A DNA stretch of 62,233 nucleotides, counting the filler, from Asterionella formosa (Eukaryota), in NCBI GenBank assembly GCA_002256025.1. It is 8 parts of 8 records of this genome, joined end to end, with 100 filler letters (N's around TTAATTAATTAA, not from the genome) between each part and the next. Parts side by side here need not be neighbours in the genome. Positions count along the whole stretch, not along the records: positions 46,796 to 54,465 come from NKIB01012406.1; 7 more parts are not named here. One strand, given 5' to 3'. Both the position numbers and the translations under genes were made by a program. Under the pieces are notes generated by a model. The model was not told where the DNA came from, searched no databases, and saw only the letters and a list, made by a program, of their open reading frames with translations. Shown here in pieces: positions 7,018 to 62,233 of this stretch; position 1 is the stretch's first letter; each line of letters opens with the position of its first letter.

Positions 7018-7716
7018 ATGAAATAGAAAGAATTGTGAGCACTTGGTGCCTTGTAGGTATTTTCTACTCTAAGTTCATATATTCGAGATATTTAGCTTGA
7101 TCTTGCTTTTCTTTTCCTATGAGATGTAAGGATAAGCCGTGTTGCATTTACTGGACATGCTTCCTTTGGTATGACAGCAATACGTAGACGTCTCTACCTT
7201 GCACCTTGTACCTGGTACCAGGTGCCAGGTAACAGATTATATCGGATTCAGTACCTTGTACGTAGTAGCTACCAGGGAACCAGGGACGAACCAGGTACCG
7301 GTAGTAAGTAACCTACCGGTATATACCGGTACGGTCCTTTGGTGTAAAATTTGAGTTAGATTAGTGCGGAACTGTACACTATGTTGACATAATGAGTTCT
7401 GTTCATCAACGTATTTGCAAACTACCACTGTTACAGAAAATTATTTATAGAATAAACTGATGTCGTTCACACATATGATACCATACCGTAATTGGTAAAA
7501 TTAAACCCAAGTTGTATTTTCCCGTAGGCCTCTGGTATGTGTCTACTGGGTCATGTTAATACTGGCACGGTATTGATCTGAAAATACTTGTGGAAGCACC
7601 GTGTTACAACAGTATTTGCCAGTAGAAAAATTAAACCCGGTTTAACTGGGGGTTTAATTTTTTGGTTTAATTAAACCATAACTGTACGCACGATCATCGT
7701 AGGAATATACACTGTA

Positions 7717-15392: not shown

Positions 15393-15857
15393 CCAGGAAG
15401 GTCTTGGTTGGTGGTTATTCTGTTGAGAACAGTAAAGCGCAGAATGAGCTTACCGGTATTTAGGCTTTGCCACTCGTAATAATGAACATGCACAGCACAA
15501 TTATTTTATACAACGGATCAATGACAGAANNNNNNNNNNNNNNNNNNNNNNNNNNNNNNNNNNNNNNNNNNNNTTAATTAATTAANNNNNNNNNNNNNNN
15601 NNNNNNNNNNNNNNNNNNNNNNNNNNNNNAACTTTATTGCTCATTACATTTTAGCCTCCTCCCATGAGATCCTTACGTGGAAGTATAAAACGAAACAAAT
15701 CATATTTGGATCATTCATTTTCTCACAACTTCATTGAATAGTACCTGGTACTCCGGAGTATATAATAGAGTACAATTGTCCTTACTACCTGGTACTACAC
15801 GTACATCCGTCGCGCACCCAAACCTGGTCCCATGGTACTAGGTACTGGTACCTGGTA

Positions 15858-16686
15858 CCATTATTGATGAAAGTGGACTTGTGTGAACTCATGGTGATAT
15901 TAAATGGTCCTGGGAGGGGGGTACCATGGTACCCTAATAGCAATAACCAAGGTAGCGGGGTTATCGACAAATACCAGACTATCCATTACACATGGGAAAC
16001 AAAGGGACTCGATCGGTACCAGGTAACAGTACTCAATCACCAACCGGCAGGTACGACAGTGACAGGTAGCATGTGTCCCAAATGGACCTACGCTGATGTT
16101 TATAACCGACCAAGCAGGGACATATATTTATAGGACTGGCTGCTTAGGAGTGTAAATGGTACCCTGTGCCAATGTAAGTAAGGTGAGCCTGGCAATTGCG
16201 GAAGGTTCGCTCGTTGCGAAAACAATTAAACACAACATGCTGCATTAGACATACAGGCAGGACAAGCATAACAAAAAATTTGACCAAACAGTGGCAGCGT
16301 CGAAAATATGTACCATTAAAATACATATATACCAGCGGCAGGCGATCAACAAGAGTTGTATAGCACTTAGAGGAAGGTAGGTTAACCGATAGGCGTTAAT
16401 AATTTGATAAGTACATCCTTGTTGCTAAAATTTGATCATACGGGGTACCACATACAGTTTATAAATTCTCCCCCCAAAAGCGGCATGACAAAACTCGAAA
16501 GTGACCAATTTCGCAAATGTGCTGAAGTGTGAATGAATACAGGTATTTAAAGTAACACGACAAATCTGTCCTTGTTAAAACAAGTTAAAGTTAGTGTCGA
16601 CTTATGTTGTTGAGTCATTCTCATAATTTAGGTAATTTCATGTAAAAACGACCACCATCTATCTGACCACCCTATCTAATAAATGG
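15858..16686. mobile_element. Possible non-autonomous TA-flanked TIR element; right end clear, left end tentative
   Basis: The right end read on the minus strand is TA|CCATTTATTAGATAGGGTGGTC-AGATAGATGGTGGTC, i.e. a CCA start plus tandem direct repeats, like the other TIR elements here. The left candidate TA|CCATTATTGATGAAAGTGGAC is only loosely similar. Confidence 0.35.
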
Positions 16687-17700
16687 TACCACCTGGTACC
16701 TGGTACCAGGGTGGTCCATGCAAATACGACTGTAGTGAAAGCTAAGATAGCTAGTGTACTACTCCGTAGTAGTCAACTAGCACCGTGTACAAAACTACCG
16801 GTAGACTACTGGTACTGATATGGAATGTGCCACCGCGTCCCACAAAACCTTGCACTGACAATAGAGGAACTTCACATGCCCCCTTTCAACCCTTGTAAAT
16901 ATCCTAGCAAGCTTTCGACCATGACCATCAATTCCCACTTCAAACTCCTGCCAGAGGACAAAGAGCATCTATAGGGTCGTAGCTACTAAGACTGTTGGTG
17001 CTTTGGTATTCTGGCTCCATGCACAGCAATCATGCCCACATCATATCTGAATACATTGTTGACTTGTTGTTCAGTGTCATTTTGATTTACTCATGGAGCC
17101 TGAAACTCGAAATTTGCATGATTGAAAGTGGGGGGCGCAGCTGCAGGCGGGGCGACCTTGAGACCACCAAATGTAAACCTTAGCCCTGGTATTCTTTGTT
17201 TAAGACAATTGAGACTTGTATTTAACTTTATCATCCCCTTTGTATAGCTGTCTTGAGATTTGCGCCTTCATCTCCTCCTTCATGTCTCATTGTGTTTCCT
17301 TCTGCAGTGAATACAGCCCAAGTACCTCATTCCTCTGCTGACCAGCTACTAGTTGTCATTGTGCTCCTCCTGCCGGTTTCCCTTGTGGTACCACCTTGCA
17401 TACAACACTACTACCACCTTGATTGAGATCAGCACCAATTTCGTCAATCTATCACCTTCTGCAATAGTAATAATAATAGGAATTTTCTCCACTGGATTGG
17501 AAGCTGCTGGAAGGCGACGCACAAATACATATGCCAACTTGACATGCCCTGTCAGTCTATCTGGTAGGTAGCCCTGTAGTAGGCATAGCCCAAAAACGGC
17601 CCATAGTAGCAACTATTCTATCTTCAAGAATGCTACTTCACTTGGGAACTGCAGAATATTATTTTGAGCTTCACAAAAATACCAAATTGTTATCATTTGC

Positions 17701-17935
17701 TACCAATTTGAATCCAAATTGGTATCAATTTTAATTTTTCTACCAACCGGGTTTCAATGTTGGTATCTATTCTTGGCGTTAGGGATAGGGGCGGTTTGAA
17801 ATTGCTTGGTTCTAAATTGGTATCATTTTAATTTTTCTACCAATCGCATTTTCAAATTGGTATCTATTGTTGGTATTAGGGTTAGGGTTTGAAATGTTGC
17901 TATCAATTCGGATTCTTGATTTCCAAATTGGTATT
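17701..17935. repeat. 98-bp-period tandem repeat with TACCAA/TTGGTA inverted words and interstitial TTAGGG
   Basis: Units start at 17716 and 17814 (aaattggtatca.ttttaatttttctaccaa...ttggtatctatt.ttgg..ttaggg.taggg). Confidence 0.75.
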
Positions 17936-19442: not shown

Positions 19443-22437
<2,995 letters not shown>

Positions 22438-22577
22438 CCAGGTACGGTACCAGGTACCACAATTGCTTGCTGATATTGCCGCCACGATGCCATCACTCAA
22501 TCCACACTGATGGGCTGACAGAACAATTTTCATTCTTGGAACTAACTCTCTTGACCATCCGAAAGACTAATTTGGTA

Positions 22578-23336: not shown

Positions 23337-24538
23337 NNNNNNNNNNNNNNNNNNNNNNNNNNNNNNNNNNNNNNNNNNNNTTAATTAATTAANNNNNNNN
23401 NNNNNNNNNNNNNNNNNNNNNNNNNNNNNNNNNNNNTTACATCAGGAATTGAATGATCACATTTGTACCAGTATATAGACTTCGGATGTACCGGTAGTCT
23501 ACGAGTTACTTGGTTGTACCAGGGTACCAGTCATACCGGTACGTAGGTTAGCGATCATATTAACTGCCCCCCAGCCTTCGTTTGGCCAAACCAAGCTGTA
23601 CGTACGTACATGTACAAGGTACTCCAGTACAAAAGTAGGAGTACAGCCAAGGCAGTTACCGGTAAATAAATTCCAACATGAGGAAGCAGCATTGTCGTAT
23701 CATTGGGAAGTCTCGCCAGTTATTTGTTCAGTTACGTTTTTGCCAGCGAACAGCAGTACCGGTACACTGGTATCATTCTGTGCGATACTCGTAAATATTC
23801 AGAACAGTACCGGTATTCTGCTACCAGGATACCTTGTATATACCAGGTACCTGGTACCTTGCTTGCATATAAACACTTCTGTAAGGAGGGAGGGAGGTTG
23901 ATGGCATGCTCTGTTTTCGCAAGCTCGTTGCGGAGGCATTTTTATGTAATATTACAAAAAGGAAGAAGAAGAATCGCCGAGAAGGTCGTCAAGATTGACC
24001 AAAAATGCTGAGCATAGAGTTTTAGGCTGCCCAACAATGGCACACAAAATTTCGGGAAGAAAGGGGTAGTGGATGCTGACAGTTCCCACCTCCAAAGTAC
24101 ATGTGTAGACTGGAAAATGATGACTTGGACATGTTGCATATGCTCCATTGATATGATTCAATGTGATGATTGTTGTTTACATCATTGCATTGAAGCAGTA
24201 TTGAGTCCTTCCAGTCCAGACTGATCTGTGTCTGCGGAATTTTTCATGTTGTGAATGACACACAACTAAATATTAGTACCGGTAGTTCAATTCCAATTTT
24301 TGTCTCTAACATGTATAACCCTTTAATCAGGGAAAAAGTGCTTTCCAACGATGTATCTAAAGTTAAAGGAAAGTAACAATAAAGTTTTCAAATTGAGCCT
24401 CAAAGAGAGACTGAAATCAGCCTAATGAGCCGGAAAGATTCCGGTATCCTATGTGCGTAGCCATAGTTTACCGGTATGGTTTGTCTTCTGCTCGCCCATC
24501 GTCGTCAGCATGATTATTCTTTTAATAAAAAATATGTA

Positions 24539-24753
24539 CTGAGAGTCAACGTTATGAGTCAAAATGGGTAAAATTAAATGGCTTAGATCTCCATAACTGG
24601 ATGTTCTACTTCAGAACTGATTAAATGGCTGATAGCTATCCCCGTTCTATCGACTACCGGTACAATACAGTTCGTACTTGGTTCTAATATTATCATTTAA
24701 GAAACTTCGATAATTTTAGTCGAAAGAAGGAGGACTGAGACGTTGACTCTCAG
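24539..24753. mobile_element. MITE (215 bp)
   Basis: Perfect 14-bp TIR CTGAGAGTCAACGT / ACGTTGACTCTCAG, extending imperfectly inward. Flanked by TA on the left and TT on the right; AT-rich non-coding interior. Confidence 0.7.
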
Positions 24754-25430
24754 TTTTAGGTGGTTCTCCGAGTACCTGTACTACCGGTATCATGTACCAG
24801 TAGTATGTTCTTTGATCTGAGTGGACCGTCTCTCCACCGCCCGGTTATTTTCACGTGCTGGTTCAACGGACGATGAATATGCCATACAGTATGTTACCAG
24901 GTACTGTGGTAGAGGAGCTGTGAACGCAAAGCAATTACCCCTGGTACCAGGTACCAGGGTACCTGGTACCAAATCAGAGGGAGGTGGGGCACCACCAGCT
25001 GTCTATGTGCCAGTCCTTTATAAGCCCACCGTATGTATATCTTGGTGCTCGTGCTGCACTACTATAGCCGCACCTTTTTTCGCAGTTTGCTGTCGTCTGG
25101 TCCCTAGTACTTCGGTATGTAGTGTAAAACAGCAACCTCCCATCTTACATTCTACTCCGTCTCTCTGCCCTTTGCATCCAGGTGTTATTGCTGGATGCAA
25201 TCATCTGCGGCTTCCCTCAAAAACAGCGAGGAGAGATCAATCATAGCAAGCAAGTACTAAGCAACAAGCCAAAATCGAAATCAAATTAGCGAGTCACTTG
25301 AAACGAGTTCTTTCTGAAACAGAACTTTACTAGCTCAGAACTGTGACTAACATAAGACCTGCAGCTGCTACTAATTTCCGGTGTCGACCAAGTTCGTAGT
25401 AGCAACACAACAATACTGTTACTCAACATC

Positions 25431-34933: not shown

Positions 34934-35972
34934 GGTCTGCTTTGGTTGTTGTAAGTTATGCTTTGATTGAATTCACTTGACTAGTTGCGACGACGATGGG
35001 TTGATGACAATGATGACGAGATAATTGTTTAGAGACAGTCAAATATATCACAAGGGCAACCGCAATGATGTCGATTACAAAAGGGAGGGGAGTGTGTTCG
35101 ATAGATGTCGCCGTCACCAAACAGCAACGACGACGAAGAATCGGCCGTACAGGCCAATTGCATACCGGTACTATACAGCGGTACCAGATACCCCCTCTCA
35201 GATACAACTACCAGTACAGGTACCAGTACCAGGTACGCCACACTGCGGATGCGCGTGCGTGTTTACAGCGGTGTGATATCTTGTCTTACTGTGCCAGTAC
35301 CGGTACATACCCGATATGAACACTACAAGAACGATGCAGCCGATGATTGCGATCTTTCTCGGTAGGATCGTCATCGAACGTACAGTACTAACTACCTTCG
35401 CTCAAGAAAGTTACGTAGAATCTACGATATTTCCACGACACCGGACATCACTGACGTACTAGGATACCCCAATGTTGGCTGGCTGACATTGATACCGTTG
35501 ATGCATGGTTGGAGGTATTGTGACCGTACGGTTAGTTGGCGTGATGTTGTCGCTTCCCAAAATGGTCGACGACGGCGTCGACGACGAAATCTCTATATAC
35601 CGGTATGCGGTATGTACTATGCACTACTCTGCAATTGATTACAGTAGGTCTACCCGTACCAGGTACCAGATACTGTTACTCCCATCATGAGGTACTCCAG
35701 GTACCAGCTACCATACCAGGATACAGTTCAGCATCAATCGATGCTTGCACCCTTCAGCAATAGCTAACTGTTTTTTTATAAACAATAACTAAAACAGACA
35801 CACTATACACCTTTTATTCCGCCCTGCCGAGCTATTACATATTTTGTTGTAGTGCGAGTTGAGTGCCATTCAAAGCAAAGAATCCAATATAATTTCATTT
35901 CATTGAACTATAGCTGCTACAAACCGTTTCTATTACCGGCAGTCATTACAACAACAACAACAACAAAACATT

Positions 35973-42682: not shown

Positions 42683-44478
42683 CCAGTTATAAATGGCTTT
42701 GAGCCACGTTATTATATCGTTTTCCGACTAATTCTAGAATTTATGCTAAAATCGATCCCCTCTTTCGCCCTTTGGCACGATATTAGTTAGTTCATTAAGC
42801 TACATGAGAATTAAATCATTTCTTTACTTGAACACATATTTACTGAGATCTATCCATTTTAAGAGTGACAAAAACGGCCAAAGTGGCTCAAAGCCATTGA
42901 TTAAAATTTTAACATACATGCTGGTTTTTTATAGGCGACGGGTAGAAAATATTATATCGTTTGCATGTTTTTTTCGCAGCCAGCAGAAGCTGCATCTTTC
43001 TTATGCTGGTTTTGTCACTTCAATTTTATCTTGTTGGTTCCATCAAAGACTCCTCGCATTTTTTCGCTGCAGTCGTTGCATCGCTCGTTCTTAGACTCCC
43101 ATCGTATCTTGTCATGTAATAGGAGCGACCGAAGGGTGAGGAAGTGGCGCCATTGCAGTCGTTGCAACTGATACTGCAGCGTTGCCACACATCATAGTGT
43201 CATGGTGGTAAGTAGAAGTTGCTTCGTTGTTGGTAATGGAAGATTACCTGCTCACTTGTAACATTTTGCCATGGTTTTCGTTTGCGCCACTGTCCACTCT
43301 GTTACTGTTTGTTTTGGTTTGTAGCGAAATGGGCAAAGTATTCATCCCATGATTTCGACACCAGATCAACAATGCATATCATCCTTTCCAACAGAAAATT
43401 CGGCATGGCGCCTTTCCTTTGGGGTGAGTAAGTCTCTCTTGCATTTCGTGAGTTGGATGTTTAAACTTGGATTTGTTGTCAGGGGTAAAAATTGGTGAGG
43501 TATGTCCTGCCAATGACTGTGAATAATTTAGTGTCATAGTTACAGGTAATTGTAATAGTAGTGAATGAGTTGCCTTTCCCGCCTGATTTAGCTTCTGCAA
43601 ATGGTACTGGATCATAGGTTTTGTTAGCCATGCCAGCAGTGTAGCCACCTTCGATGAAACAATATTCAAGACTGCACCACATGATGGCTGGTAGTTTGCC
43701 ATTGCTATTTGCCTTTGAAGTTCTTCCTAATTCCATAACTATTTTATTTTAAATAAGTGACATGATGGCAGTCTTATCCAAAGTAATAGGTATCGCCTTG
43801 TAGTTTTTGAAGTTTCATTGTTGTTAAGGAGATGACTGCGATTTGCTTCATTTTGCAGTATGTCGGAAGCAATTTCTGATGTCGTGAATTATGGTCTCGG
43901 ACATAAATGTATGGCTCGATTTTTTGGCCTTGAAGAAATATTGCATTCATTTACCAAGATTTACCAAGAGTGACTAATTGATTAATTTATTGCTATAGTA
44001 CATTGTCCATGGCGGTTAAACGCAACTAAATATGTATTAGATATTAAATGTTTTTCATTTATGACTACGGTAAGTGTATTTCCGGGCGATGCCGGCTCAA
44101 TGGTATAATATTTCTTTTGCCACTTTTGGGCCGATCGATACTTTCCGACACATTTATCTTGTCTTATTTTCTAAAACACAAACCTTATCCGATAACTAGA
44201 TATGGTGTATCCGGCACAACATCAGGAACAACTTTATCTTACTAAAACACNNNNNNNNNNNNNNNNNNNNNNNNNNNNNNNNNNNNNNNNNNNNNNNNNN
44301 NNNNNNNNNNNNNNNNNNNNNNNNNNNNNNNNNNNNNNNNNNNNNNNNNNNNNNNNNNNNNNNNNNNNNNNNNNNNNNNNNNNNNNNNNNNNNNNNNNNN
44401 NNNNNNNAAAACACAGTGAATATTATATCCTCAAGTGACTCAAAGCCATTCGAAGTGACTCAAAGCCATTTTAACTGG
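42683..44478 (-). mobile_element. Non-autonomous Tc1/mariner-pogo-like DNA transposon with TA TSD
   Basis: TIRs CCAGTTATAAATGGCTTTGAGCCAC (42683-42707) and its near-complement GTGACTCAAAGCCATTTTAACTGG (44455-44478). TA on both sides; extra copies of the inner repeat at about 42882-42898 and 44435-44450. Frameshifted transposase-like N-terminus (KANSNGKLP.../NIVSSKVATLLAWLTKPMIQYHLQKLN) on the minus strand. Confidence 0.8.
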
Positions 44479-44819
44479 TACGCCTGGTACCAGTTCCGTA
44501 CCTCTACTCGTGTTCAATGTTGTTGCTTACCGGTACTGGTACCTGGTATCTGGTACGTGCAAGTTGCGGTTATTTTGCTGAAACTAAATATTTAGCTTTG
44601 TTTTTCTCAGAATCAAAAAAATGTTGGTTGAAGCAAAATGACCGCAACTTGCTGGTAGTTTATGCATCGAACAATACCGATATATCGCATGCATCAATTG
44701 ATGATCCTCTTGTTGAGCATGAAAACACATAAATAGCTACTGGAGAACCCCGAATTTCGAACCCACGACAACTATACATATAAAGCGAATCTGACGCCAA
44801 TCGCCCTTAATCTGAAATC

Positions 44820-46533: not shown

Positions 46534-47090
46534 ATTTTTGATGTTTTGATTCTGCCAGTTGCACGTTAGAGTATTCTTGTAAAAATACCTATTACAGGTT
46601 ATTATTATATCCAAACCACGCGTCAGACTTCATTTTGTGTGGCAAGTCTGGACGTGTTAAAATAACCAACCCTCACCTCTCTTTTATATCATGTANNNNN
46701 NNNNNNNNNNNNNNNNNNNNNNNNNNNNNNNNNNNNNNNTTAATTAATTAANNNNNNNNNNNNNNNNNNNNNNNNNNNNNNNNNNNNNNNNNNNNCTTTT
46801 TTGTCTAACAATATGTAGATCTACGTTGAAAAGGTGATAACGGTATGTACAGTTTAGTAAAGGTGCACGGGGTCATTGTTTCCGTTGTATTCAGAAAGGC
46901 TACCGGTATGTACATGCACCTGGAATGGTATTTACTAGTCTTCCTGGTACCAATATTATACATGGCTGAAGATATGCATCGTTCATGACCAACAAAATTC
47001 GATTTTGTATAATTGATAGTATGCCTCTACATATATATAATTTTATCATATCATCTCGTGGCTATTTTGTCGAGTCGAGTCATGAATAAT

Positions 47091-47136
47091 CCACGACAAG
47101 GACAGTGCACGTGCGAACAGCAATTTACCACGTGGT
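47091..47136. promoter_or_regulatory. ACGT-core (G-box/UPR-like bZIP) sites upstream of BiP
   Basis: CCACG at 47091, GCACGTGC at 47107-47114 and CCACGTGG at 47128-47135, about 170-215 bp upstream of the ATG. Function is inferred. Confidence 0.35.
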
Positions 47137-47304
47137 GATCGTGCGAAACGCGCAATCGAATCTGGGCATTTTGCGAATGGAAATCCTACGGCTCCGGTGA
47201 GCTCTTGGCTGTTTCTTGTACTACATTTTGGCGCTTGTCCATTTCTCGCTCATCACCAGCAACTCAACAAAACAAACAACCGTCCAACAGCTTACCTAAT
47301 CATC

Positions 47305-49819
47305 ATGATCTTTAGAAAACTTGCGCTTGTGGCCTGTAAGTAATCGTATACTACCCTCTGTGTAATGAAGAAGTGTCGGCGTGGAAAAGGAACGAGACGA
47401 TGGACGATCGAGGGACCATGGAAGTGAACCTTCCATGGAAGTCTTTCGAGAAGCCGCGATGACCCGTATTGCCGTTGGAGGCAAAGCATACGGTTTATTC
47501 ATGAACCTCGATAACCAGGTGCACTCCTGTCACCATAGTATATTTCGCTACCAACGCGGGGCTCGTTAATGGAGATTCGATGCTACCGCCGCAAACTGTG
47601 TTGAGGACTGGCTTCTGATCTTGCACACTTCACCTTTTGGTCCCCGAGAATGGTGCGGACCTCTGCTGCGAGCTTGCTGTTGCCATTCCATTGTTCGCTC
47701 CTCCTCTTGTTTCTTTCATGTTATTCTTGTCATCATTTCGTCGGGCTCGCGTTCATTTATCTAATTCTCCTTTGTTTCTGCTATTATTTCTTGCTTCGCA
47801 GTGGCCCTTGGTGCCAACTTCTCCCCCACCATGGCCGAGGAGGAGAAAATGGGAACCGTCATTGGGATTGATCTCGGAACCACCTACTCTTGCGTCGGTG
47901 TCTTCAAGAACGGTCGTGTGGAAATCATTGCCAACGACCAAGGAAATCGTATCACTCCTTCCTACGTTGCGTTCATGGCGTCTGGGGAGCGTCTCGTTGG
48001 AGATGCTGCCAAGAATCAGGCAACCATCAACCCTGAAAACACTGTTTTTGATGTCAAGCGACTTATTGGACGCAAGTATTCTGACAAGTCAGTTCAGGCA
48101 GACAAGAAATTGGTCCCATATGCGATTGTCTCGGACAACGACAAGCCTATGGTCGAGGTTCTTCAAGGAGATACCAAGGTCAAGTTTGCCCCGGAGGAAA
48201 TCTCGGCCATGATCTTGCAAAAAATGAAGGCAACCGCGGAAACATTTCTTGGAAAGGAAATCAAGAATGCTGTTGTTACTGTCCCTGCATACTTCAACGA
48301 TGCGCAGCGTCAGGCAACCAAGGATGCCGGAACCATTTCCGGCATGAAGGTCGAGCGTATCATTAACGAACCAACTGCTGCTGCCATTGCCTATGGTATG
48401 GACAAGACTGGAGGAGAATCAAATGTATTGGTCTTTGACTTGGGAGGAGGAACCTTCGATGTCACCCTTCTTACCATTGACAACGGAGTTTTCGAGGTAT
48501 TGGCTACCAACGGAGACACCCATTTGGGAGGAGAAGATTTCGATCAGCGTGTGATGCAATATTTTATCAAGATGATGAAGAAGAAGTCCGACGTTGATAT
48601 CTCCGGTGACAAGCGTGCATTGCAGAAGCTTCGTAAGGAAGTCGAACGTGTCAAGCGCGCCCTTTCTTCCCAGCAACAGGCTCGTTTGGAAATTGAGGAC
48701 TTGGCAGAAAATTATGATTTGTCAGAAACGTTGACTCGTGCTCGTTTCGAGGAACTCAACAACGATCTTTTCAAGAAGACTCTTGGACCTGTGCAACGTG
48801 TTATGGATGATGCCGACATGGCCAAGAGTGAAGTTGATGAAATTGTCCTTGTTGGTGGATCCACTCGTATTCCCAAAGTGCAGCAGTTGATCTCTGAATT
48901 TTTTGGTGGAAAGGAACCTTCCAAGGGTATTAACCCTGACGAGGCTGTTGCATATGGTGCTGCTGTTCAGGGAGGTATCTTGTCTGGAGAAGGAGGTGAT
49001 GCTACCAGTGAGATTCTGCTTTTGGATGTTACCCCCCTTTCCCAGGGTATTGAGACTGTAGGAGGTGTCATGACCAAGCTTATTAACCGTGGTACCACCA
49101 TCCCCACCAAGAAGTCCCGTAAGTTTTATTGCACTGTCTGTTGTCAATTTTATTTGATGAATTTTGTTTCTAACAAAAAATAAATATTTCATCCGACAGA
49201 GACTTTCTCCACCCACCAGGATAACCAGAACGTTGTTTTGATTCAGGTATTTGAGGGAGAGCGTTCCATGACTAAGGACAACCACTTGCTCGGAAAGTTC
49301 GAACTCACTGGCATTCCTCCTGCCCCACGTGGTGTCCCTCAAATTGAGGTCACCTTCGAGGTTGATGCTAATGGTATCCTTCAAGTAGCTGCTGAGGACA
49401 AGGGAACTGGAAAGGCTGAAAAGATTACCATTACTGCTGAGAAGGGACGTTTGTCAGAAGAAGATATCGAGCGCATGGTCCGTGAAGCTGAGGAGTTTGC
49501 TGAAGAGGACAAGAAGGTTAAGGAGAAGATTGATGCCCGCAATGGATTGGAGTCGTACCTCTACAACTTGAAGAACACTCTTGATGACGAGGAGAAGGGT
49601 GCCAATCTTTCTGCGCAAGATAAGAAGGAGCTCCAAGACATGGTTGATGAGACACTAGACTGGATGGAAGAGAACCCTGAGGCAGATAAGGAGGATTACA
49701 AGGAAAAGCAAAAGGAGGTTGAACAAGTTGCGAACCCCATTATGCGCCAATTCTATGGGCAGGGAAGCTCTGGTGGAGCCGATGAGGATGCCGGTGACTT
49801 CGGCGATGACGAGTTGTAA
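47305..49819 (+). CDS. BiP: ER luminal Hsp70 (BiP/GRP78); exons 47305-47335, 47802-49118, 49200-49819
   Basis: Spliced signal peptide [43 protein letters not shown]-terminal DDEL retention signal. Confidence 0.97.
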
Positions 49820-49977
49820 AGCATCATTTTCGTCAAGGAAATTTAGATGATTTTGAGGGCTTAAAGTATATAGGAATGGAATTTATAAGAAAGTGAAGGT
49901 GCATTTGTTTGTTTTCCTTTAAGTCTTCCTACCGGTACTTCAATGCGTCTCGATAGTAATAAAAATAAAATTAGACT

Positions 49978-50823
49978 TTATGTTATTTTGTTTTTCTTGT
50001 TTTGACAATGTTCTTGGTGTCTCATCCACTTCCTTTTCCAATAAAGTTGTCCCCTGCCCTCCATAGCTTCACATTTTCTGAATCCAACAAACGATATCCC
50101 GCAACCACTACAACAAGCATCGTCACATGTATGACCATTATATACATTATCAAATGCAGGTCCGATTCCTGGGACATATGAGGAATTCTTGACACAAACA
50201 TGCATGTAAACAGCTATTCGCTCCACGGAATTACCATCCAAATCACCCAGTACAGCATTCGTTTCATCCATCCTTTTTCTTGTAATGGCTGTAAATCCCT
50301 TGAAATCCCTTAGTTGCGTGAAATTCTTTCTAGGTGAAAGGACTAGGTACTTGCCACCATCCACCAACCAGCGATGAACATTGTCGAACAGTTTTCGAAG
50401 GAGTTCCATTTGAACTTGTTGTTTGCTTCGAAATAGAAATGTGTCTAAACATCCCTTGTCAAGAACCATATGAAACGGCTTTTTAATCTCGTCCTCCAAC
50501 ATCAGCACATTCAAAACAGCGTACGAAAACTTTCCCCCCGAAGAGTCAATCCATGATTGATCTCTACGTTGATTGCTTTCAATACAAATGTTACTTACAT
50601 CTGTACTAACAATATGACAACCTGTATGTACATACAAGTCCCTGGCCAAGTTGGATGATCCACATCCAATTTCCAAAACACTGGGGTGTGATGATGGTAC
50701 TACATGTAACAACTCCTTTTCTAGAATCGTCAACAACGATGCTGATGGTATCAATATCCACTCCTTGGCAGATTCTTGTTCGTGGTACTCATTCCAGAAA
50801 TCAATGGTCTTGTTACTTTGCAT
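49978..50823 (-). CDS. Class I SAM-dependent methyltransferase (EEF1AKMT4/METTL13-N-like) with a Cys/His-containing C-terminal extension
   Basis: FWNEYH...KEW, VLEIGCGSSNL, TDVS, VLDKGCLDTF; tail CSGCG...HQEHC. Confidence 0.85.
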   Translation of the reverse strand: MQSNKTIDFWNEYHEQESAKEWILIPSASLLTILEKELLHVVPSSHPSVLEIGCGSSNLARDLYVHTGCHIVSTDVSNICIESNQRRDQSWIDSSGGKFSYAVLNVLMLEDEIKKPFHMVLDKGCLDTFLFRSKQQVQMELLRKLFDNVHRWLVDGGKYLVLSPRKNFTQLRDFKGFTAITRKRMDETNAVLGDLDGNSVERIAVYMHVCVKNSSYVPGIGPAFDNVYNGHTCDDACCSGCGISFVGFRKCEAMEGRGQLYWKRKWMRHQEHCQNKKNKIT

Positions 50824-51531
50824 AATTCATGAAGGTGTCGTTTGATATATAATATGGAGGTTAACAACTTTCTTGTGCAAAACTGGAAGTAATGGGTGTA
50901 CCGGTAGGTCGTAAAGTTAAATCACACGAATGTCATTTCGCGAGCAACAACAAACAATCATTCTTGTTCTCATCATTTTGTTGCTTACCGGTTTTATGTA
51001 CGCATACCAGTAAGTGTCTGCGTCGTACTGGTCCCTGGTCCAGTACCGTACTTAAGGTTGATATTTGGTGCGTTTATGATTATGTCATGGCACAGCGAAC
51101 GACCATCATGCATGATATACCGCTACCGGTACTGTACCTATTCTACACGTATCATTCTTCATGCAAGGATCGTTTACCACCAGGTACCAGGGTACCGGTA
51201 TTTTATCTTGATCATTATGGAATCATGGATACTATGTATAATGTTGTGCATGTAAAATGCACCACCCTCTTGCTGCCTTTTGTTAGGGACTGTCAAGGTA
51301 CCTGGTACCGGCACAGGTACTCTGATAAATAAAACAAAAAGATTCGGTTTCGCTTTACGGTAGTAGTTTTTACTTATTTTTTATACCGGTAAATAAATAA
51401 TAAATATATATGTATGCATAGTGGTGTGATACTTTTTACTTATTTGAATATAATTGATAAAAAAAATGCCGGTATGCACACCGTAGTCACCTCGGGTATC
51501 CACGGTACATTTACATTGTATGTAGTTCACC

Positions 51532-52835
51532 ATGCCGTCGGCTCTCTTTGCATCAACTTCGCCGTACAAGCCCTCCCTATTGACCATTTCTTTCGCTGAG
51601 AATCCCACTGAATCTTTGGGCGCTCAGCTGAATAACCGGGACAATGTAAGTTACAATGGAAGGAAGGTTACGTTTCTGTCGCATTGTTTGATTTGGATTA
51701 TTCATGTCATTGCTCACTCATTCATGCCCTTACCTACATACGCTACACTTTGTAGGGAGAGACAGCTGAAATGTTCATTCCCTCCTACCTGACGATCCTC
51801 ATGCTGTTAGATGGAGATACAGTAGCACGGAAATCGGGGGTGTTGCAAGGCGATTGCATTGTTTGTGTCAATGGCGAAGGCTTTCGACGTTTCCCCCCCG
51901 ACTGGCCAGAAGGAGACTTGGAGCATTTGAGTGGCGACCACGAAGAATGGACAGACGAACAAAAGGTCAAGAGGGCAGAAACACTTACAGGACTTGATAT
52001 TGGGGAGCATTACAATGTAGTCCTGGATAGAATTAAAGAAATCAAGGCCCAAGGCGACGCGAATCCGTTGATACTCACATTGGAACGCCATGGATGGGAT
52101 GCCAAGGCAAATTCATTCGGACGATTCTTAGTGGCACGAGATTCCAATATAGTTCAAGCCATGGGGATGCTGGAAAAGCATGAACAATGGAGAGAACGCA
52201 TGTTCCCTATTGACCTGACATCACCCTCACTACAAGAGATCTTGAAACTTAAGGCAATTTCTGAAATTTGTGTCAATCCACAAGCACCGACGGTATATGT
52301 CAATTACGCAAAATTAGCGGTATTGGAACATTCTCACACTCCAGAAGATGTTGTCAAAGTATTCATCATGTTTACTGAAATTATGTTGGGCAAAGCTCCC
52401 GATCCGACTCACCCAAAGACTTGTCAATTTATTGACTTGACTGGGGTCGTCATTAGCGTGACAGGCTTTCGAGTCGATATATTAAAGGCACTCTACGCTG
52501 CCTTTGAACCAAACTATCCCGAGGCTCTGCACACAATGGTCTTGTATCCTGTCTCCAAGACAATGGTGCGTTGGTTGTTTTCATGTCAAAAATGTGCATT
52601 TCTTTGTCATTTCCAAGCTCACCACAATTTTACGTTTATATAGTCTTCCATTATCAAGGCAATGCTGAGATTTGTCAATAGCAAAACCCTTGACAAGATT
52701 GTCATGACTGATGACCTAGAAGTGGTGTACAAGGAACTAGGTTGGGATAAAGAGGAAGTCGACGCATCTGGGGGCTTCGATGACTTCGTCCGAAAGAACG
52801 ACAAGGCCGCCAATGATTTAATTATTGAGATTTAG
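51532..52835 (+). CDS. PDZ-like + CRAL-TRIO (Sec14-like) lipid-binding protein; exons 51532-51645, 51756-52565, 52644-52835
   Basis: VARKSGVLQGDCIVCVNGE (PDZ-like); RFLVARD...AMGMLEKHEQWRE, FIDLTG, FEPNYPEALHTMVLYP, FVNSKTLDKIVM (CRAL-TRIO). Both introns are phase 0 and GT-AG. Confidence 0.85.
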
Positions 52836-52975
52836 TTTCTAAGTTTTATTCCATTAATCTTATAATAGTAAATTCCATGTATAGGTATATAGTCTCGAAA
52901 TGTGAGAATAACATCGCGATGACAAACCGAATTGAGAAAAATAAGCCCATGCCAAAGGATTTACCAAATGCCTGT

Positions 52976-53449
52976 TTATTTCTCCTTCTTTGTTTTTGCT
53001 TTGTCTGCCACAATTTCAGGAACTGCTGTCTTTCGTCTGGGAGTCTTGAACCAATTCAGAACACGAATGTACTGGGTATTGAACCTTGCTGCAAAGGAAC
53101 CAGCGTAAAAGCCAACAAACACTGAGCATAAAGTCACGAGAACTGGTATGAGTAAATCTTTATCCAGATTCAGGTCGATAGGCCCCTCGCTATCAGACTC
53201 GATTTCTTCCCAGAATCTCCTATGTAGTACAACAAAACCAACAACAATGGGAACGAAAAGAAATACCGCAAGAGAGAAGTACGTGGGAGGCAGACGGAGA
53301 ATTTCCGCGAGGCGTACTAATCTACGTTCCATCGGGGTCAAGTCGACGTCACGGGATGAGACAGTAACAGGCTTTAGAGCCTTATCTTTGGCAGCATGCT
53401 TTTGAAACGCTGTCGCTTTCTTTTGTTCGGCTGTTTGTGTTTTGCTCAT
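52976..53449 (-). CDS. Hypothetical 157-aa membrane protein with two TM helices
   Basis: ATG at 53449; hydrophobic YFSLAVFLFVPIVVGFVVL and LLIPVLVTLCSVFVGFYAG; basic tail ending KTKKEK. Confidence 0.6.
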   Translation of the reverse strand: MSKTQTAEQKKATAFQKHAAKDKALKPVTVSSRDVDLTPMERRLVRLAEILRLPPTYFSLAVFLFVPIVVGFVVLHRRFWEEIESDSEGPIDLNLDKDLLIPVLVTLCSVFVGFYAGSFAARFNTQYIRVLNWFKTPRRKTAVPEIVADKAKTKKEK

Positions 53450-54296
53450 CGTGTCGACCAGGTCGTCTTGAATGGACTTTGATGGAATAAAAGTCTGCCG
53501 ATGGTCAATCGTTAGTGAGCTGGCTAGGTTACCTAAAGGCACACCACTGACGAGCTGCAACACAAAAACATCGATATGAACTACACATAATCATGAAACT
53601 TACCAAGGGCGACGACTTTAATAATGTCGCTGAAGAATTGTGGAATAATTTGATGGATGGATCGTGAAAGCGTGTTGGTGCAGCAAGTGGGTGAGCGTTG
53701 GATGTTGTGTACCCAGGTACCGGTAAAAATATGTAGAAGTAGCTATGATTTTTGGACCGCAGTAACTTCAAATTTAGTACATCACATATATAATGTAGCG
53801 TATAGTACTATTTTGAGAATGCTGATGTACCAGTACACTACCGGTAACGGAGTAAAAAATGAGGAAATTGCAGGAGAGGACCTCAATATTTTCTCAATCT
53901 GGTGGCTGGCTTCTTCGTCTTGCGATGAATCTTGACGGAATCTTCACAATTGGACCTAGTCGACTCCATCTGCTTCGTTTTCTTCTTAAAAGAAACTTTA
54001 TCAGTTCTATGCGAAGGCCGACGTCAATATAGGCAGTGAATCATACGACATTATCGTCATGCTGAGAAGAATAACCTGTACCAGGTACACAACTATGAAC
54101 ATGAATGCATCAAGCATGCAAACACATACATAGCCCAACGAAATAATTCACTGTACCTGGTACCTGGTACCAGGTACCAGGTACCTAGTAACACCTGGTA
54201 CCGTTACTCGAGTATATTACCTGTAGTGCGGGTGAAGGCGTTATTCTTTTTTAACATTTTTGCGGAGTCAACATTGACAAAATGTCTGTGTATATA

Positions 54297-54465
54297 ATGG
54301 CATCTTGCTCTCATTTTCTCCTCTTCCTGTTGCTGCTGTCACATACACACGCCCTAGTCCCTGACTTCCGAAAGGCAACAAGCGAGGATGTTTTAGTCGC
54401 TCGCAAATTCTTGTTTAAAGAAGCAATGAATCCCCTTTCCCTCTCGACGCGAACCTTGCTGGTCG
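54297..54465 (+). CDS. 5' fragment of a signal-peptide protein, possibly a GNAT acetyltransferase; truncated by the linker
   Basis: FLLFLLLLSHTHA-L signal; FRKATSEDV resembles the first strand/helix of GNAT proteins. Confidence 0.45.
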
Positions 54466-56689: not shown

Positions 56690-57252
56690 GGTGGTGGCGA
56701 AGATCTGGCGAATTCGATCAATCATGATTGGAGTTCACACAAACGCATTCATTCACCATTCTACCTTTTTTTAAATTTTGTGTTCATACCTACCGTATTC
56801 TTATTTTAGGGAGTTGATTTGTATACCGGTATGTTCGTGTATCATAGTCGTCCTCTTTGTATATTGCGTTTCTACGTACATTTTAGGTATGTACCGATGC
56901 TGGTTGCCTATAGCACCAGGAGGTACTAGGTACCAGGTACCAGTAAGTTTTCCTCGTGGGAGCAACTGGTACTTCCTGGTTCTGTGAACCTAGTATCATA
57001 CCCAGCAACAGGTATCACCAGGTACATGATACGATCATAATGGTCGGTGATGCAGCATGAAGAGAATTCGTGGAGACCAGGAGGTTTTTCTTCCTGTGCA
57101 TACAATATCTATGGATGCATGTAGAGCAATGTAGAGCAATGTAGCGTTTACAATATACCGGTAAATGAATCGGGTACCTGGTACCAGGTAGGTAGGGACC
57201 AGGCCTAATTTACAACAAACTACCAATAAGAAAGCAAATTAGATCATTGACC

Positions 57253-57835
57253 ATGGCGGCTTTTGGTGCTTTTTCTCGGACTCGCGCTGTCCTTAAGGCC
57301 AAGACTAACTCAAGCCTGGCAATGTCAAAGTGGTGGGCCAAGTATATCCCAGATGAAGGTCAGGTGAGGAACAACACCACTCGCCGTTGGTCTGACCGTT
57401 GATCGACAACATGCAACAAGCAACATGTCACGACAGAAACCCGAAAACGTGGGAATACCGGTACCGGTATGTGTATTACATTGGCTCTGTTGTTGACTCT
57501 TCTCTCCACGCATATCGCAGGTTATTCGGCACCTTTCACCGATGGAAACTCTACCAATTGCACCATGGATTAAGACTTTCCCCACAAAGGTGCGTCAAAG
57601 ATAGATGAATGGATTGTCATTTGCAGCCGGTTCGCACTGAAAGACTTACGTTTCTTTTTTCGCCGTTCCACTTTTGCCATTCTCGCTTCTGGGTACTTCT
57701 TTTCTTTCCTAGATTATGGACCGTGCTTGGGATTACATTGTCTATGTTGGCGGAACCGCGGGACTTGCCATGGGTATCATCACGTGGTCAAAGACATCGG
57801 ACTACAATAAAGGGGTCGCCGAAGAGCGAGACTAA
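57253..57835 (+). CDS. 100-aa protein, probable cytochrome bc1 complex subunit 8 (QCR8/UQCRQ-like); exons 57253-57363, 57521-57589, 57713-57835
   Basis: Not in the ORF track. Exons of 111+69+123 nt, both introns phase 0 and GT-AG. Protein: MAAFGAFSRTRAVLKAKTNSSLAMSKWWAKYIPDEGQ/VIRHLSPMETLPIAPWIKTFPTK/IMDRAWDYIVYVGGTAGLAMGIITWSKTSDYNKGVAEERD. LSPxE motif plus one C-terminal TM helix. Confidence 0.7.
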
Positions 57836-59457: not shown

Positions 59458-62106
59458 GCTGCTCTGAAAATGCTCGACTTTGGATCAAATCTTCCGTAAT
59501 AGACAGCCGGAGCCGGCAGTGTGGTCGAGTCGCAGTCCACGTCGATTCGCTATCCAAGACTGCAGCTCACTGGAACTCTTTTCGGAACGAACGATCTGCT
59601 GGCGATGGACAGATACAATCGAATCAAGCTGTAAGCTGTAAGCTGTAAGCTGCAAGCACAAACTCAATTCGAGTGAATTCTCCGTCGCAAAACAAAAGGA
59701 AATGATGCACCAGTTCAACAAGGCACAGCAGCAACTGTGTTCAGTGTTGCTATGTAGTACGATATGGTTCTTGAGTTCCGACAAGTTGGTATTTTTTTAA
59801 TTATCATCGATAGACCCAGTGTTTTCGTACGCACTGAGCAGTACAGCCAAATCAAGAGAAGAAGTTTGGAATGTATCGGGCTATATAAGATACCAGTACC
59901 AGCACGTTTTCCGGGACTCCGTAGATAATTTATTTCGCGGCCGCTTGTGGGGAAAGAGCAGATACGGTGGTGGTAAAATTTTTACGAACGACCCAACTAC
60001 CGGTAGTTATCATACCATGAACCGAGTGGTAACTGGTATGTACAAGCACGTACAGGAACTTGGTAGATGTTACCAGGTTCCTTACCTGTGCGCATGTCCT
60101 TTGTACCAGTACCTGGTACCTGGTACTAGTCACCAGGCCAGCTACCTTGGTACCAGGTGTACAAGGTAGGAGTAACAGTTACGCCCTGGCATAGAGTATA
60201 GAGTAACGGTACCATGGTACCAGGGTATCTGGTACCAGAACCTGGTCCAAATTTTGTTGGTGAAACGTAATGATAAAGCAAACGAGGACATATGTGCAGA
60301 CGATCACACTCCTAAGTAAAACTGACAATTAGCCCTGCGTGACATCATACTCCTGCAAATAACCAGTCATGACGGTTGAAGGACTAGCCAAGTGGCAGGG
60401 GAGCGTTTTACAAATGCGGAGGATTCGGCTCGTTTTACCGATAGTCATTTCATTAAATTGTCTTGTGGATTCAATTCGAATTGGCCATGTGAATGAAGGA
60501 ATCTACCGTATGCCGTTCAGGCCAGCCAAATTTTTTACGATCCCTCCACAGAACAGTGCGAACTACCGGTACTATATTTGAGTCATCCGAGTCATTACTT
60601 GGAACACAAATACTAGCATGCAGTCACACGTCGTAACTTAGATACACTTATTACCAAAATTCTATGTACGAGTATGTTATTCGACGTATGAACTAAGAGT
60701 ACCGTAGTACCTGGTACTAAACGTTACCATGCTATGCATGTCTGACCATATTGACGTAATCAATGATGACTGAGGCGGACCAGGGAATCTTGATTCCGAC
60801 CATCTTCCTGCCTATTTTACGTGTGTTTATAATTTTTGTGCTAGCATTACTTAAGTAGACTACTGGTACCTGGTACCAGCAGGGCAGACGAAGGTACAGG
60901 CAAACTGAAATACTGGTAATTAGCTCAAGTTTCTACCAGAGGTGGCGCTTATGTCCACTGCATCAGTACCAGGGTACGACTTCTCAAGGAAGTGACATTA
61001 ATTCAGATTTTTCACCCTCTCCATGCAAGAAAAAATTTCTTTGATATTTTATAAGTGATTGATTTTTGTAACTTCCATTGCCTGACATGTCAATTACTGT
61101 CCATTATGGTCCCATATTTATTGCTGTCCTTTCTCTTGCTACTTACTCTTTGGTAAAAATGATTCTATTTCAGACAAAAAGTAGAATATGCATCTATTTT
61201 ACATGTTCAGCCTTTTTTGCTTGTGCTTTTGCACTTGTCCACTTTTACACATGACTTGACACCCACATCTGTATAGTGTCATTGTTTCCACTCCTTCAGA
61301 AAAGAAGGCAACCCTGCCTGGCTGGGCCCTGACATCCTTCTTTTATGCCATTGCTTGTTGTACAGTCCATGTCACTCATAAAGCTCCAGAAGTTCAGTTC
61401 AGAATTGTTGTTTTAGCAAAGGATGTGCTGCTACACAACCTAGGGAGCTCCAGATGATGCACTAAGTTTATATTGGGTGGGCACATGATGCATTGGATGT
61501 ATGTGAATGAATGCTGCACCATGTACCCAGGCAGTGGGGTTCTGTAAATCTGGTCATACTATTCACTTTGAAGGAGTAGTTTGTCAGACAGTTAGAAGAC
61601 AACTACAATGTGGTAAGGAGGAGGAAGTGAAATGCCAACTTTCTTTGTTAAATTCAATGCCTTGTCTCCTAGTAAAGCAAGGAGTACTAGCAGATAACAA
61701 CTCCTGCCAGGAAGTTTGCAGTGTGGGAGAATTATTTACCTTCTACTAGGTGCCCACTGCTGTTAAGATGGGGCAGTGCTAATGATTATGTGCAATTATA
61801 CCTTTCATGGTAGTAGTCGAGACCAAGTAGCATTTTCCAGTACCCAGGAGGTAACCAACAATGAAAATTTAATGCAGCAATATTACTAATAGCTAGCTGG
61901 GCTAACATACTGGGATGATAATTTTCCTATATTCATGTTTTTGGGTACCATGTTTTTGACTGCTGGATTTTGTCATCCAAAATTTGCCCACCTTATATAG
62001 GCATTTGCAATACAAGGCAAAAATCTTTTGACATTTTTTGATTCAATACTATGTATTGAATTAATCCAAGCTGATGTTGCCTGCATTGACCTTGTAAACT
62101 ACTTGA

Positions 62107-62233
62107 AGCCAATGCAATGCACATACCGGTGATCTCAAGCTTACGGGTTTCTGTCGTGTTGCTTGTTTCATGCTGTCGATCAACGGTCAGACCAACGGCG
62201 AGTGGTGTTGTTCCTCACCTGACCTTCATCTGG
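62107..62233 (-). repeat. Inverted, diverged copy of the QCR8-like exon 1 end and intron 1 (57349-57486), running off the window end
   Basis: Reverse complement ccagatgaaggtcaggtgaggaacaacaccactcgccgttggtctgaccgttgatcgaca is identical to 57349 onward, then diverges with substitutions and small indels. Confidence 0.9.

Follow-up and report, generated by a model that had tools for sequence, protein, structure and literature searches.

TA-bounded palindromic words gained and lost as whole units in non-coding DNA of Asterionella formosa: possible scars of transposon excision

The DNA analysed here, a stretch of 62,233 nt referred to as the window, consists of eight Asterionella formosa scaffold parts of ~7.7 kb each, separated by runs of N and a TTAATTAATTAA spacer. 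The GC content varies between 34 and 48% (2-kb windows) and the genes, which are eukaryotic and intron-poor, include those for Hsp70, a SAPS-domain protein, ketoacyl synthases and a kinase. The SAPS protein has a 99% match in an environmental record; its best named relatives (38-46% identity) all come from pennate diatoms (Fragilaria, Nitzschia, Cylindrotheca, Pseudo-nitzschia and Seminavis), and scaffold 8 is present in public sequencing runs from 13 studies labelled as freshwater, lake or algal metagenomes. The non-coding DNA between these genes carries a family of short words of the form TA-x-TA, to which a first-pass annotation had drawn attention in an array at 54150-54205 and which it had interpreted as stacked footprints left by excised transposons. 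We found that this pattern is real, strong and genome-wide.

The array reads as that annotation described it, the 13 further clusters that it named are all present, and family words occur on all eight scaffolds. The palindrome TACCGGTA is found 37 times in the window compared with a mean of 0.33 in 100 dinucleotide-preserving shuffles, and ranks first by enrichment both among the non-homopolymer 8-mers and among the TA-x-TA words. The same shuffles predict 0.01 copies of the 11-nt word GTACCWGGTAC (W being A or T), of which there are 22. Other members of the family are TACCTGGTA (16 copies), TACCAGGTA (13), TACCAGTA (11), TACTGGTA (7) and TACCATGGTA (2); GGTACC reaches 61 copies versus ~10 expected from base composition, and 37 of the 42 occurrences of ACCGGT belong to TACCGGTA. 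Once the telomere repeat, the spacer and overlaps are excluded, the x of each of the seven most enriched TA-x-TA words is made of CCA(G) and (C)TGG pieces. In contrast, TACATGTA, which had been counted as part of the set, is not enriched (4 copies, outside the 30 most enriched TA-x-TA words). The density of TACCGGTA amounts to 1.1 per kb of non-coding DNA, or ~0.6 per kb of window. Perfect family words cover only 2.7% of the non-coding DNA, rising to no more than 59 bases out of 250 in the densest stretch, so that intergenic DNA cannot be said to be "built from" them, as had been proposed.

To follow the words beyond the assembly, contigs of three public DNA runs from three studies (X1, X5 and X6) and of one poly-A RNA run were compared with positions 46796-54465 (scaffold 7, 7.7 kb), X5 having the appearance of a deep data set from a culture. 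An exact 29-nt coding word of scaffold 7 had no match in the collection metagenome_contigs. RNA contigs were used as evidence of presence only, and stretches without RNA cover were not counted as evidence. The comparison placed 450, 1034 and 4862 contigs per DNA run, most of them fitting two places of the stretch, and in each DNA run the bin holding the array had 200-330 times the summed contig depth of the bins beside it. Loose contig ends start exactly at the array edges (54152/3 and 54185/6/90), beyond which their agreement is only 0.35-0.45 and there is no flank consensus. The array itself thus recurs at hundreds to thousands of loci and, since its flanks at these loci are unrelated, it does not belong to any longer repeated sequence. 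The assembly is fragmented, with N gaps and a poly-G run of 127 nt, which might raise the suspicion of an assembly, adapter or chimera artefact. This explanation is practically refuted by the recovery of the same arrays and flanks in independent contigs from the three studies, and related words are also seen in contigs of other diatoms obtained in other projects.

Open reading frames (ORFs) of at least 190 codons, which make up 46% of the non-N bases, were taken as a proxy for coding DNA. ORFs of 131-155 codons that run over motif-rich tracts (15738-16130, 23479-23898, 24821-25243 and 50865-51329) had no Pfam match and were treated as non-coding. None of the 37 copies of TACCGGTA and none of the 29 copies of TACCWGGTA fell inside a long ORF, and only 3 of the 61 GGTACC words did. 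The scarcity in coding sequence that had been noted by eye is therefore confirmed by counting, but it represents a lack of enrichment and not a depletion, as only ~0.4 copies are expected in the long ORFs. Family words mostly precede ORF starts, by anything between ~20 nt and over 1 kb and with no fixed position (Table 1). A few are found in 3′ regions (3194, 14228 and 49930), the last of them in a convergent 3′ region and inside an RNA contig. For the gene at 51771, on scaffold 7, the RNA contig begins at 51523, downstream of the arrays at 51124-51391.

Words that are palindromic, confined to non-coding DNA, mostly upstream of genes and, on scaffold 7, placed ahead of RNA contig starts are what would be seen if they were bound by dimeric transcription factors, one or two in number, one recognizing TACCGGTA and the other GTACC-W-GGTAC with GTAC cores 7 nt apart. 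Such sites would form selected homotypic promoter clusters, with unit indels reflecting turnover by slippage or repair-associated copying. We consider this explanation somewhat unlikely. Its weak points at this level are the loose placement, the very high density of TACCGGTA in non-coding DNA and the occurrence of the arrays at so many loci.

The anatomy of the words was then analysed. The core of the array (54153-54184) is a perfect 32-nt palindrome (100% self reverse-complement match), which Tandem Repeats Finder (TRF) reports as 5.4 copies of a 7-nt unit. In the general form TACC-N-GGTA, the spacer measures 0 nt in 37 cases, 1 nt in 30 (A or T in 29 of the 30) and 2 nt in 9, wider spacers being at noise level. 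Three half-site spacings, with a spacer limited to A or T, would be unusual for a single binding factor. GTAC-to-GTAC distances peak at 7 nt (28 cases), followed by 6 nt (12) and 8 nt (10), and TRF detects ~13 short arrays with a 7-nt period and 2-5.4 copies each, in which adjacent units occur in mixed orientations (TT 3, AA 3, TA 5 and AT 1). Most copies of TACCGGTA (35 of 37) are nevertheless free of tandem overlap with another copy.

Decayed copies are also recognizable. Among the one-letter variants of TACCGGTA, those in clear excess are TACTGGTA and TACCAGTA, the products of CpG transition, with 18 copies where 1.3 are expected; TACAGGTA and TACCTGTA come next (6 versus 1.3). TACCAGTA and TACTGGTA could be parsed as footprints with three nucleotides from one transposon end and one from the other. 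We rejected this parsing and prefer to read them as TACCGGTA decayed by CpG transition, because the corresponding 2+1 words, TACCGTA and TACGGTA, occur at background level. Copies decayed at non-CpG positions are few, 14 being found where 7.4 are expected and perfect copies numbering 37, which fits either constraint, as on a binding site, or youth.

Next, we looked at differences between alleles. One contig of run X1, 3006 nt long, covers 51190-54171 and differs there by 24 substitutions and 32 gap letters, all of the latter explained by five indels. Two of these are TA-bounded units. The insertion at 51232 converts GGATAC-TA-TGTAT into GGATAC-TA-CCGG-TA-TGTAT, that is, it creates a complete new TACCGGTA at a plain TA with no prior tandem unit. 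It also appears in one X5 contig at about half of the local depth, a mixture that probably reflects heterozygosity. The insertion at 54029 converts AATA-TA-GGCAG into AATA-TA-CAGG-TA-GGCAG, again with no prior tandem unit. The remaining indels of the contig are two adjacent insertions at 53762 and 53764, which jointly form one 16-nt complex change, and a 4-nt ACAT slippage at 54124; a further insertion of AA at 47038 sits on another X1 contig, outside the 3006-nt one.

Paralogous sequences inside the window differ in a similar manner. A repeat starting with GTGAG is present in three copies of ~180-200 nt (3927-4107, 19442-19567 and 22242-22438), located directly after AG or CA. Only the 19442 copy carries the insertion TGTACCGG; we regard it as a gain because both the closest sister (22242) and the more distant copy (3927) are devoid of it. 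The second pair of paralogs, 57349-57486 and 62107-62233 in inverted orientation, differs by one CCGGTA unit. As for the repeats themselves, the GTGAG repeat, one copy of which ends in ...CAG, resembles an intron and may be an introner-like or miniature element. The 19442 copy extends further (19442-19960) and has 26-nt inverted ends (19452-19477 and 19926-19951), and each of the three copies (3927-4107, 19442-19960 and 22242-22438) has a GGTACC word no more than 30 nt away. The inverted pair is at least 138 nt long, with 85% identity and no difference in the first 60 nt. On scaffold 8, its members flank both the kinase gene and the region rich in family words, and the duplication runs off the window end.

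Altogether, indels of at least 4 nt comprise four allelic and seven paralogous cases, and family units account for 4 of the 11 as against a coverage of 2.7% (binomial P = 1.5e-4; P = 0.02 if a coverage of 10% is assumed). The expectation that indels at TA would involve these words is thus borne out in a small sample: TA versus TA-CCGG-TA and TA versus TA-CAGG-TA, one TACCGGTA gain and one unit difference between paralogs. Three related loci from another diatom, in which the words are lacking, served as a control and showed TA-bounded indels with assorted x (GA, CA, TG, CCA and GTAA) and no preferred word, and family-unit indels were absent among the strain or species pairs of other diatoms that were compared (L008/L009, L020/L021/L023 and L017/L018). 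What is new here is that TA-bounded words are gained and lost as whole units. This behaviour points to a sequence-specific insertional origin rather than to slow evolution of binding sites, as new full-length sites made by clean insertions of 6-8 nt at TA in site-free DNA are unlike turnover by point mutation.

Table 1. Coordinates of TA-bounded word arrays, clusters, polymorphic sites and related features in the window
Feature	Position	Strand	Remarks
Array GTACCTG GTACCTG GTACCAG GTACCAG GTAC	54153..54184	.	~100 nt upstream of ATG 54283, divergent intergenic region
Polymorphic TA vs TA-CCGG-TA	51233..51234	.	+TACCGG at 51232; X1 144.1 of 144.1; X5 one contig, 408.8 of 2278.9
Polymorphic TA vs TA-CAGG-TA (TACAGGTA)	54030..54031	.	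+TACAGG at 54029, runs X1 and X6
8-nt insertion TGTACCGG making TACCGGTA at 19500	19496..19507	.	Only in 19442 copy of the GTGAG repeat
TACCGGTACCGGTA	57456..57469	.	Two CCGGTA units vs one in inverted paralog 62107-62233
Three 24-25-nt mini-palindromes TACCAA...TTGGTA	17701..17862	.	Inside ~98-nt tandem duplication
TA-preceded stretch, first 13 nt (60153-60165) identical to Mos1 5′ inverted terminal repeat start of PMC3419177	60153..60170	+	One arm of local palindrome
Solitary GTACCAGGTAC site	54079..54087	.	
Cluster TACCTGGTACCAGG and three TACCGGTA	7209..7331	.	
Cluster, 11 family words including TACCATGGTACC	15742..16025	.	ORF over cluster without Pfam match
Cluster, 6 family words	16685..16814	.	
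GGTACCAGGTACC	22446..22458	.	Directly 3′ of intron-like repeat copy
1.5-kb motif-rich tract upstream of SAPS-domain gene (ATG 25431)	23466..24970	.	23 family words, nine TACCGGTA, array 24943-24970
Divergent intergenic region between two fatty-acid synthase genes	35163..35705	.	11 family words
Cluster TACCGGTACTGGTACCTGGTA, then 104-nt inverted repeat (44554-44657)	44486..44548	.	
Divergent promoter region, 10 family words	50899..51391	.	RNA contig of downstream gene starts 51523
TACCCAGGTACCGGTA and TACCAGTACACTACCGGTA	53716..53846	.	Upstream of minus-strand gene ending 53563
Clusters upstream of MBOAT-like gene	56824..57190	.	
Densest region of the window	59891..60976	.	59/250 bases of 60001-60250 in perfect words; decayed look-alike units around

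The footprints of Tc1/mariner elements are one of the closest known systems. According to the respective studies, mariner footprints formed in vivo reflect a cut at the 3′ end and another that falls, on the 5′ side, two or three nucleotides into the element (PMC2642840), and a Stowaway/mariner element that excises leaves behind end sequence together with the two copies of the target (PMC4561436). The footprints of Mos1, Tc1, Sleeping Beauty and Osmar/Stowaway share with the words described here a TA on each side, two or three nucleotides per side and alleles of the TA versus TA-x-TA type. The 5′ inverted terminal repeat (ITR) of Mos1 begins with CCAGGT, the first three nucleotides of which correspond to the CCA...TGG pieces of our words (PMC3419177). 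The enriched words in the window are all of the TA-x-TA form and the polymorphic alleles are TA versus TA-x-TA; the spectrum of the enriched words fits CCA/TGG ends and the start of the Mos1 ITR. Diatoms carry mariner-like elements; our literature search turned up no paper describing them. To our knowledge, neither such a high density nor chaining into arrays has been described for Tc1/mariner footprints.

We therefore propose, tentatively but as the best single account of the data, that the words are products of sequence-specific insertional mutation at TA, most likely excision scars of the Tc1/mariner type. Cut-and-paste elements of this kind, with TA target duplication and ends CCA...TGG, would excise and the break would be rejoined, each end leaving two or three element nucleotides between the two TA copies. 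The scars predicted are TA-CC-GG-TA (TACCGGTA), TA-CCA-GG-TA (TACCAGGTA), which on the other strand equals TA-CC-TGG-TA (TACCTGGTA), and, rarely, TA-CCA-TGG-TA (TACCATGGTA). The counts of words retaining 2+2, 2+3 and 3+3 nucleotides, 37 : 29 : 2, fit two ends acting independently with a probability of 0.76 of leaving two nucleotides (chi-square p = 0.19). Scars would build up in open, non-coding, mostly promoter-proximal DNA, might multiply locally into short arrays of 6-8-nt units through repeated events, slippage or repair-associated copying, would decay by point mutation, chiefly at CpG, and could later be co-opted as protein-binding sites. A density of about one word per kb would require words to originate at ~1% of the per-site substitution rate, and two unit indels versus 24 substitutions in the 3-kb contig would be of that order. 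The dispersal to loci with unrelated flanks and the lack of a fixed position also speak for this account. The enrichment, the restriction to non-coding DNA, the dispersal and the gain or loss of units at TA are direct observations, while a transposon as their cause, its family and the way in which arrays grow are inferred.

Several results weigh against this proposal. To begin with, a donor is missing from the window: no transposase domain was found with Pfam in 98 translated ORFs (15 long and 83 further ones), and a directed search for TA-CC...GG-TA elements with 16-nt arms returned just the arrays and one local mini-palindrome, without real terminal inverted repeats. Thus, neither a donor element with terminal inverted repeats and a TA duplication nor a DDE transposase was found in the 62-kb window, no resident element ends could be read with which to compare the retained nucleotides, and there were no extant insertions that would bear on the proposed re-use of the GG-TA-CC site. 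Likewise, among the contigs of the four runs over 7.7 kb we saw empty and scar-like alleles at 51233 and 54030 but no occupied ("filled") one. The flanks are a second difficulty. Around the W-type word TACCWGGTA, 51 of the 58 flank positions are occupied by G (at -1) or C (at +1), compared with 26 of 74 for TACCGGTA (Fisher p = 5e-10), and this is also true of 10 of the 12 positions at the six unchained W-type sites. Since these flanks are near-fixed even at unchained sites, the W-type word is in full GTACCWGGTAC, a palindromic extent of 11 nt that suits a binding site. Flanks are therefore not common to the two scar types of one presumed element, and one process acting on arbitrary TAs does not predict them. 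Words with a single end are at background (TACCATA, 6 versus 5.1 expected; TATGGTA, 3 versus 5.6), as are those of the 2+1 type (TACCGTA, 5 versus 3.9; TACGGTA, 5 versus 4.1). The absent donor and transposase, the fixed W-type flanks and the unenriched one-end scars all set the words apart from known Tc1/mariner footprints. Finally, the allelic insertion TACAGGTA at 54030 cannot be parsed from CCA/TGG ends, the paralog gain at 19500 is of 8 nt instead of 6, the allelic differences at 51233 and 54030 may be either gains or losses, and each of the three insertions has an identical hexamer or heptamer within ~60 nt (chance per random non-coding TA of 0.175, 0.189 and 0.10). Identical words near all three equally suggest local templated copying.

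As a consequence, the parsing put forward in the first-pass annotation (TA, one to three nucleotides of each end, TA) holds for the enriched words, which keep two or three nucleotides of the CCA/TGG ends, but does not extend to one-end and 2+1 words, to TACCAGTA and TACTGGTA or to TACAGGTA. The footprint interpretation as a whole gains from the word spectrum and from the unit indels at TA, and loses from the missing transposon, the W-type flanks and the fact that TACCGGTA is a published oomycete motif. Its further statement that the window holds TA-flanked elements with terminal inverted repeats ending in CCA...TGG has a counterpart in the mini-palindromes at 17701-17862, the nearest thing in the window to such elements, and in an imperfect 104-nt inverted repeat at 44554-44657; neither was recognized by the directed search as having real terminal inverted repeats.

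The last features raise the question of whether the words are remnants, either solo or abutted ends, of a family of miniature inverted-repeat elements, or its preferred target sites, instead of excision scars. The commonest adjacent pair in the arrays, ACCTGG-TA-CCAGGT, looks like two mariner ends abutted on TA (TA 5 versus AT 1), and to this may be added the mini-palindromes and the Mos1-like stretch at 60153-60165. However, a ratio of 5 to 1 is not significant, the loose contig ends share nothing beyond the array, the TACCAA ends are limited to one 250-nt tandem region and the ITR-like stretch is single in the window and absent from 43 related loci. We consequently hold this origin to be improbable. 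Two candidates were discarded along the way. TACCAAWTTG ends do not behave as a dispersed element, with 19 occurrences versus 13 expected at one mismatch and exact copies only at 17680-17933. The start at 60153 is weak as an element end and possibly due to chance, as there is no other TA-preceded copy with up to two mismatches in those 43 loci, which also weakens it as support for mariner excision.

Two side observations may be added. A sub-threshold GAG-pre-integrase match on the minus strand at 6048-6560 (E = 0.0012, 19 bits versus a cut-off of 28.4) may be the relic of a Copia-type retroelement. In addition, AATGGCTTTGAGCCAC (reverse complement GTGGCTCAAAGCCATT) forms inverted arms at 42689-42710 and 42880-42901, 169 nt apart, and recurs within 44418-44470 in the form of a tandem pair of 20-nt units (44433-44470), suggesting that there is a second family of small inverted-repeat elements.

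The proximity of identical words to the three insertions, with a joint chance of ~0.003 for random TAs, would also result from a process that needs no transposon, in which the words are a self-copying micro- or minisatellite-like repeat. TA-rich breaks would be repaired by templated insertion of the polymerase theta type or by slippage, and seed words would multiply locally and neutrally. Templated insertion is a general mechanism of alternative end joining (polymerase theta, synthesis-dependent microhomology-mediated), and its products share with our indels short inserts that match sequence within ~60 nt, 2-nt microhomology bounds and direct or inverted orientation. The ~13 TRF arrays, the 7-nt peak of GTAC distances flanked by 6 and 8 nt, the mixture of direct and inverted units, as from snap-back and loop-out copying, and the one paralog difference that is a plain tandem copy-number change would follow as well. 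Clusters of factor sites built on short tandem repeats are likewise known as promoter arrays of a 6-8-nt unit whose copy number differs between paralogs. In such clusters and in satellites the unit is tandem, whereas here most copies are solitary and two or three new units arose at unit-free sites. Moreover, copying from nearby sequence cannot have placed identical words of 8-13 nt at hundreds to thousands of loci whose flanks are unrelated, and templated insertion provides neither word specificity nor dispersal to new loci. The choice of these words over other TA-x-TA segments is left unexplained, and in the control trio of another diatom the TA-bounded inserts are assorted and do not form one word family. 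Self-copying is hence a distinctly unlikely origin of the words.

Sequence comparison with other stramenopiles bears mostly on the choice between excision scars and binding sites. TACCGGTA is the Phytophthora infestans "high-confidence" promoter motif M94 which, together with TACATGTA (M93), forms a pair of palindromes differing at the two central bases (PMC3597505); its counterparts are motif-9 (GTACCGGTA) in the 2012 study by Seidl et al. (PMC3520976), whose motif-1 also belongs to this group, and, in Plasmopara halstedii, streme-5 (ATACCGGTAT; PMC10031896). The identical 8-nt palindrome is thus abundant upstream of genes in another stramenopile lineage, and in the window it shows the location expected of a promoter motif, within ~1 kb upstream, all 37 copies being non-coding and mostly upstream. 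Unlike in Phytophthora, TACATGTA is not enriched here, and unit indels such as ours are not reported for the oomycete motifs. The status of TACCGGTA as a published, stage-associated oomycete motif would also be expected of a conserved protein-binding site. The portions of text available for the three studies (PMC3597505, PMC10031896 and PMC3520976) name no factor binding TACCGGTA, and that of PMC3597505, which does not list all of the six motifs that were functionally tested, does not name M94 among them. A 2024 study of binding specificities in P. infestans contains none of these words in its text, the logos in its figures lying outside the text search. Our literature search found no paper that describes GTACCWGGTAC or the 7-nt arrays, and none that ties these words to diatoms, string matches being judged by title or abstract.

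We also analysed 42 loci of other diatoms around SAPS homologues (364 kb; 41 loci after also leaving out L038). TACCGGTA occurs there 18 times versus 2.8 expected, a 6-fold enrichment that ranks it 4th of 256 palindromic 8-mers, and it is present in 11 of the 41 loci; a conserved protein-binding site would again give such a result. TA...TA palindromic 8-mers in general are 2.4-fold enriched in these loci, compared with 1.08-fold for other palindromes, and chained words of like style appear in several of them (TACCGGTACCGGTACC, TACCTGGTACCTGGTA and TACTGGTACTGGTA). The density of TACCGGTA is more than 10 times lower than in the window, and one trio of related loci has a few copies, all in conserved coding sequence. 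Such a difference of at least 10-fold between diatom lineages favours excision scars and is difficult to reconcile with a binding site, for which, moreover, no cognate factor is known. The binding-site explanation stays alive because the donor is missing in the window, the W-type flanks are fixed and TACCGGTA is spread across stramenopiles. As a separate observation, other words are over-represented in the related loci (L001-L043), namely CTAGCTAG (22 versus 1.5 expected), TATGCATA (29 versus 3.7, with 15 in L028) and TAGTAGTA/TACTACTA (79 versus 16, in 21 loci), and it seems that every diatom lineage uses a set of TA-containing short repeats peculiar to it.

Extending the excision proposal to the whole group, the abundant short palindromic "promoter motifs" of stramenopiles (TACCGGTA and GTACCWGGTAC here, TACCGGTA/M94 and TACATGTA/M93 in Phytophthora) might have originated not as protein-binding sites but as a cumulative record, extended to this day, of Tc1/mariner excision at TA, with local multiplication by break repair. 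We offer this broader idea as a doubtful one. If it were true, transposon scars would be a major source of stramenopile promoter sequence and possibly of new regulatory sites. The mariner footprint, known as a small-scale event, would be shaping promoter DNA genome-wide in a major algal group and leaving a readable record of past transposition, and two of the most abundant published oomycete "promoter motifs", which still lack a factor, would have to be reinterpreted. Should the words be binding sites instead, TACCGGTA would be a regulatory word common to diatoms and oomycetes, and the 11-nt GTACCWGGTAC a new and very abundant diatom promoter element. The two readings are not mutually exclusive, as scars could be co-opted as binding sites, and under either of them the gain and loss of motif units among alleles provides a directly testable handle.

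Some other features of the window deserve mention. Scaffold 1 starts with 12.8 copies of ACCCTT followed by two ACCCTA units of the CCCTAA type (1-86) and, judging from these repeats, resembles the end of a chromosome on which a variant telomere repeat stands beside the canonical one. The poly-G run mentioned above (127 nt, 21479-21605) adjoins an N gap, with a poly-C stretch 120 nt beyond, and is probably a sequencing or assembly artefact. A 188-nt tandem duplication (18203-18578; two copies, 85% identity) lies within an ORF without Pfam match. Lastly, RNA contigs confirmed three GT..AG introns on scaffold 7, at 47335-47802 (466 nt, Hsp70 leader), 49118-49200 (81 nt, Hsp70 body) and 51645-51756 (110 nt, leader of a CRAL/TRIO gene).

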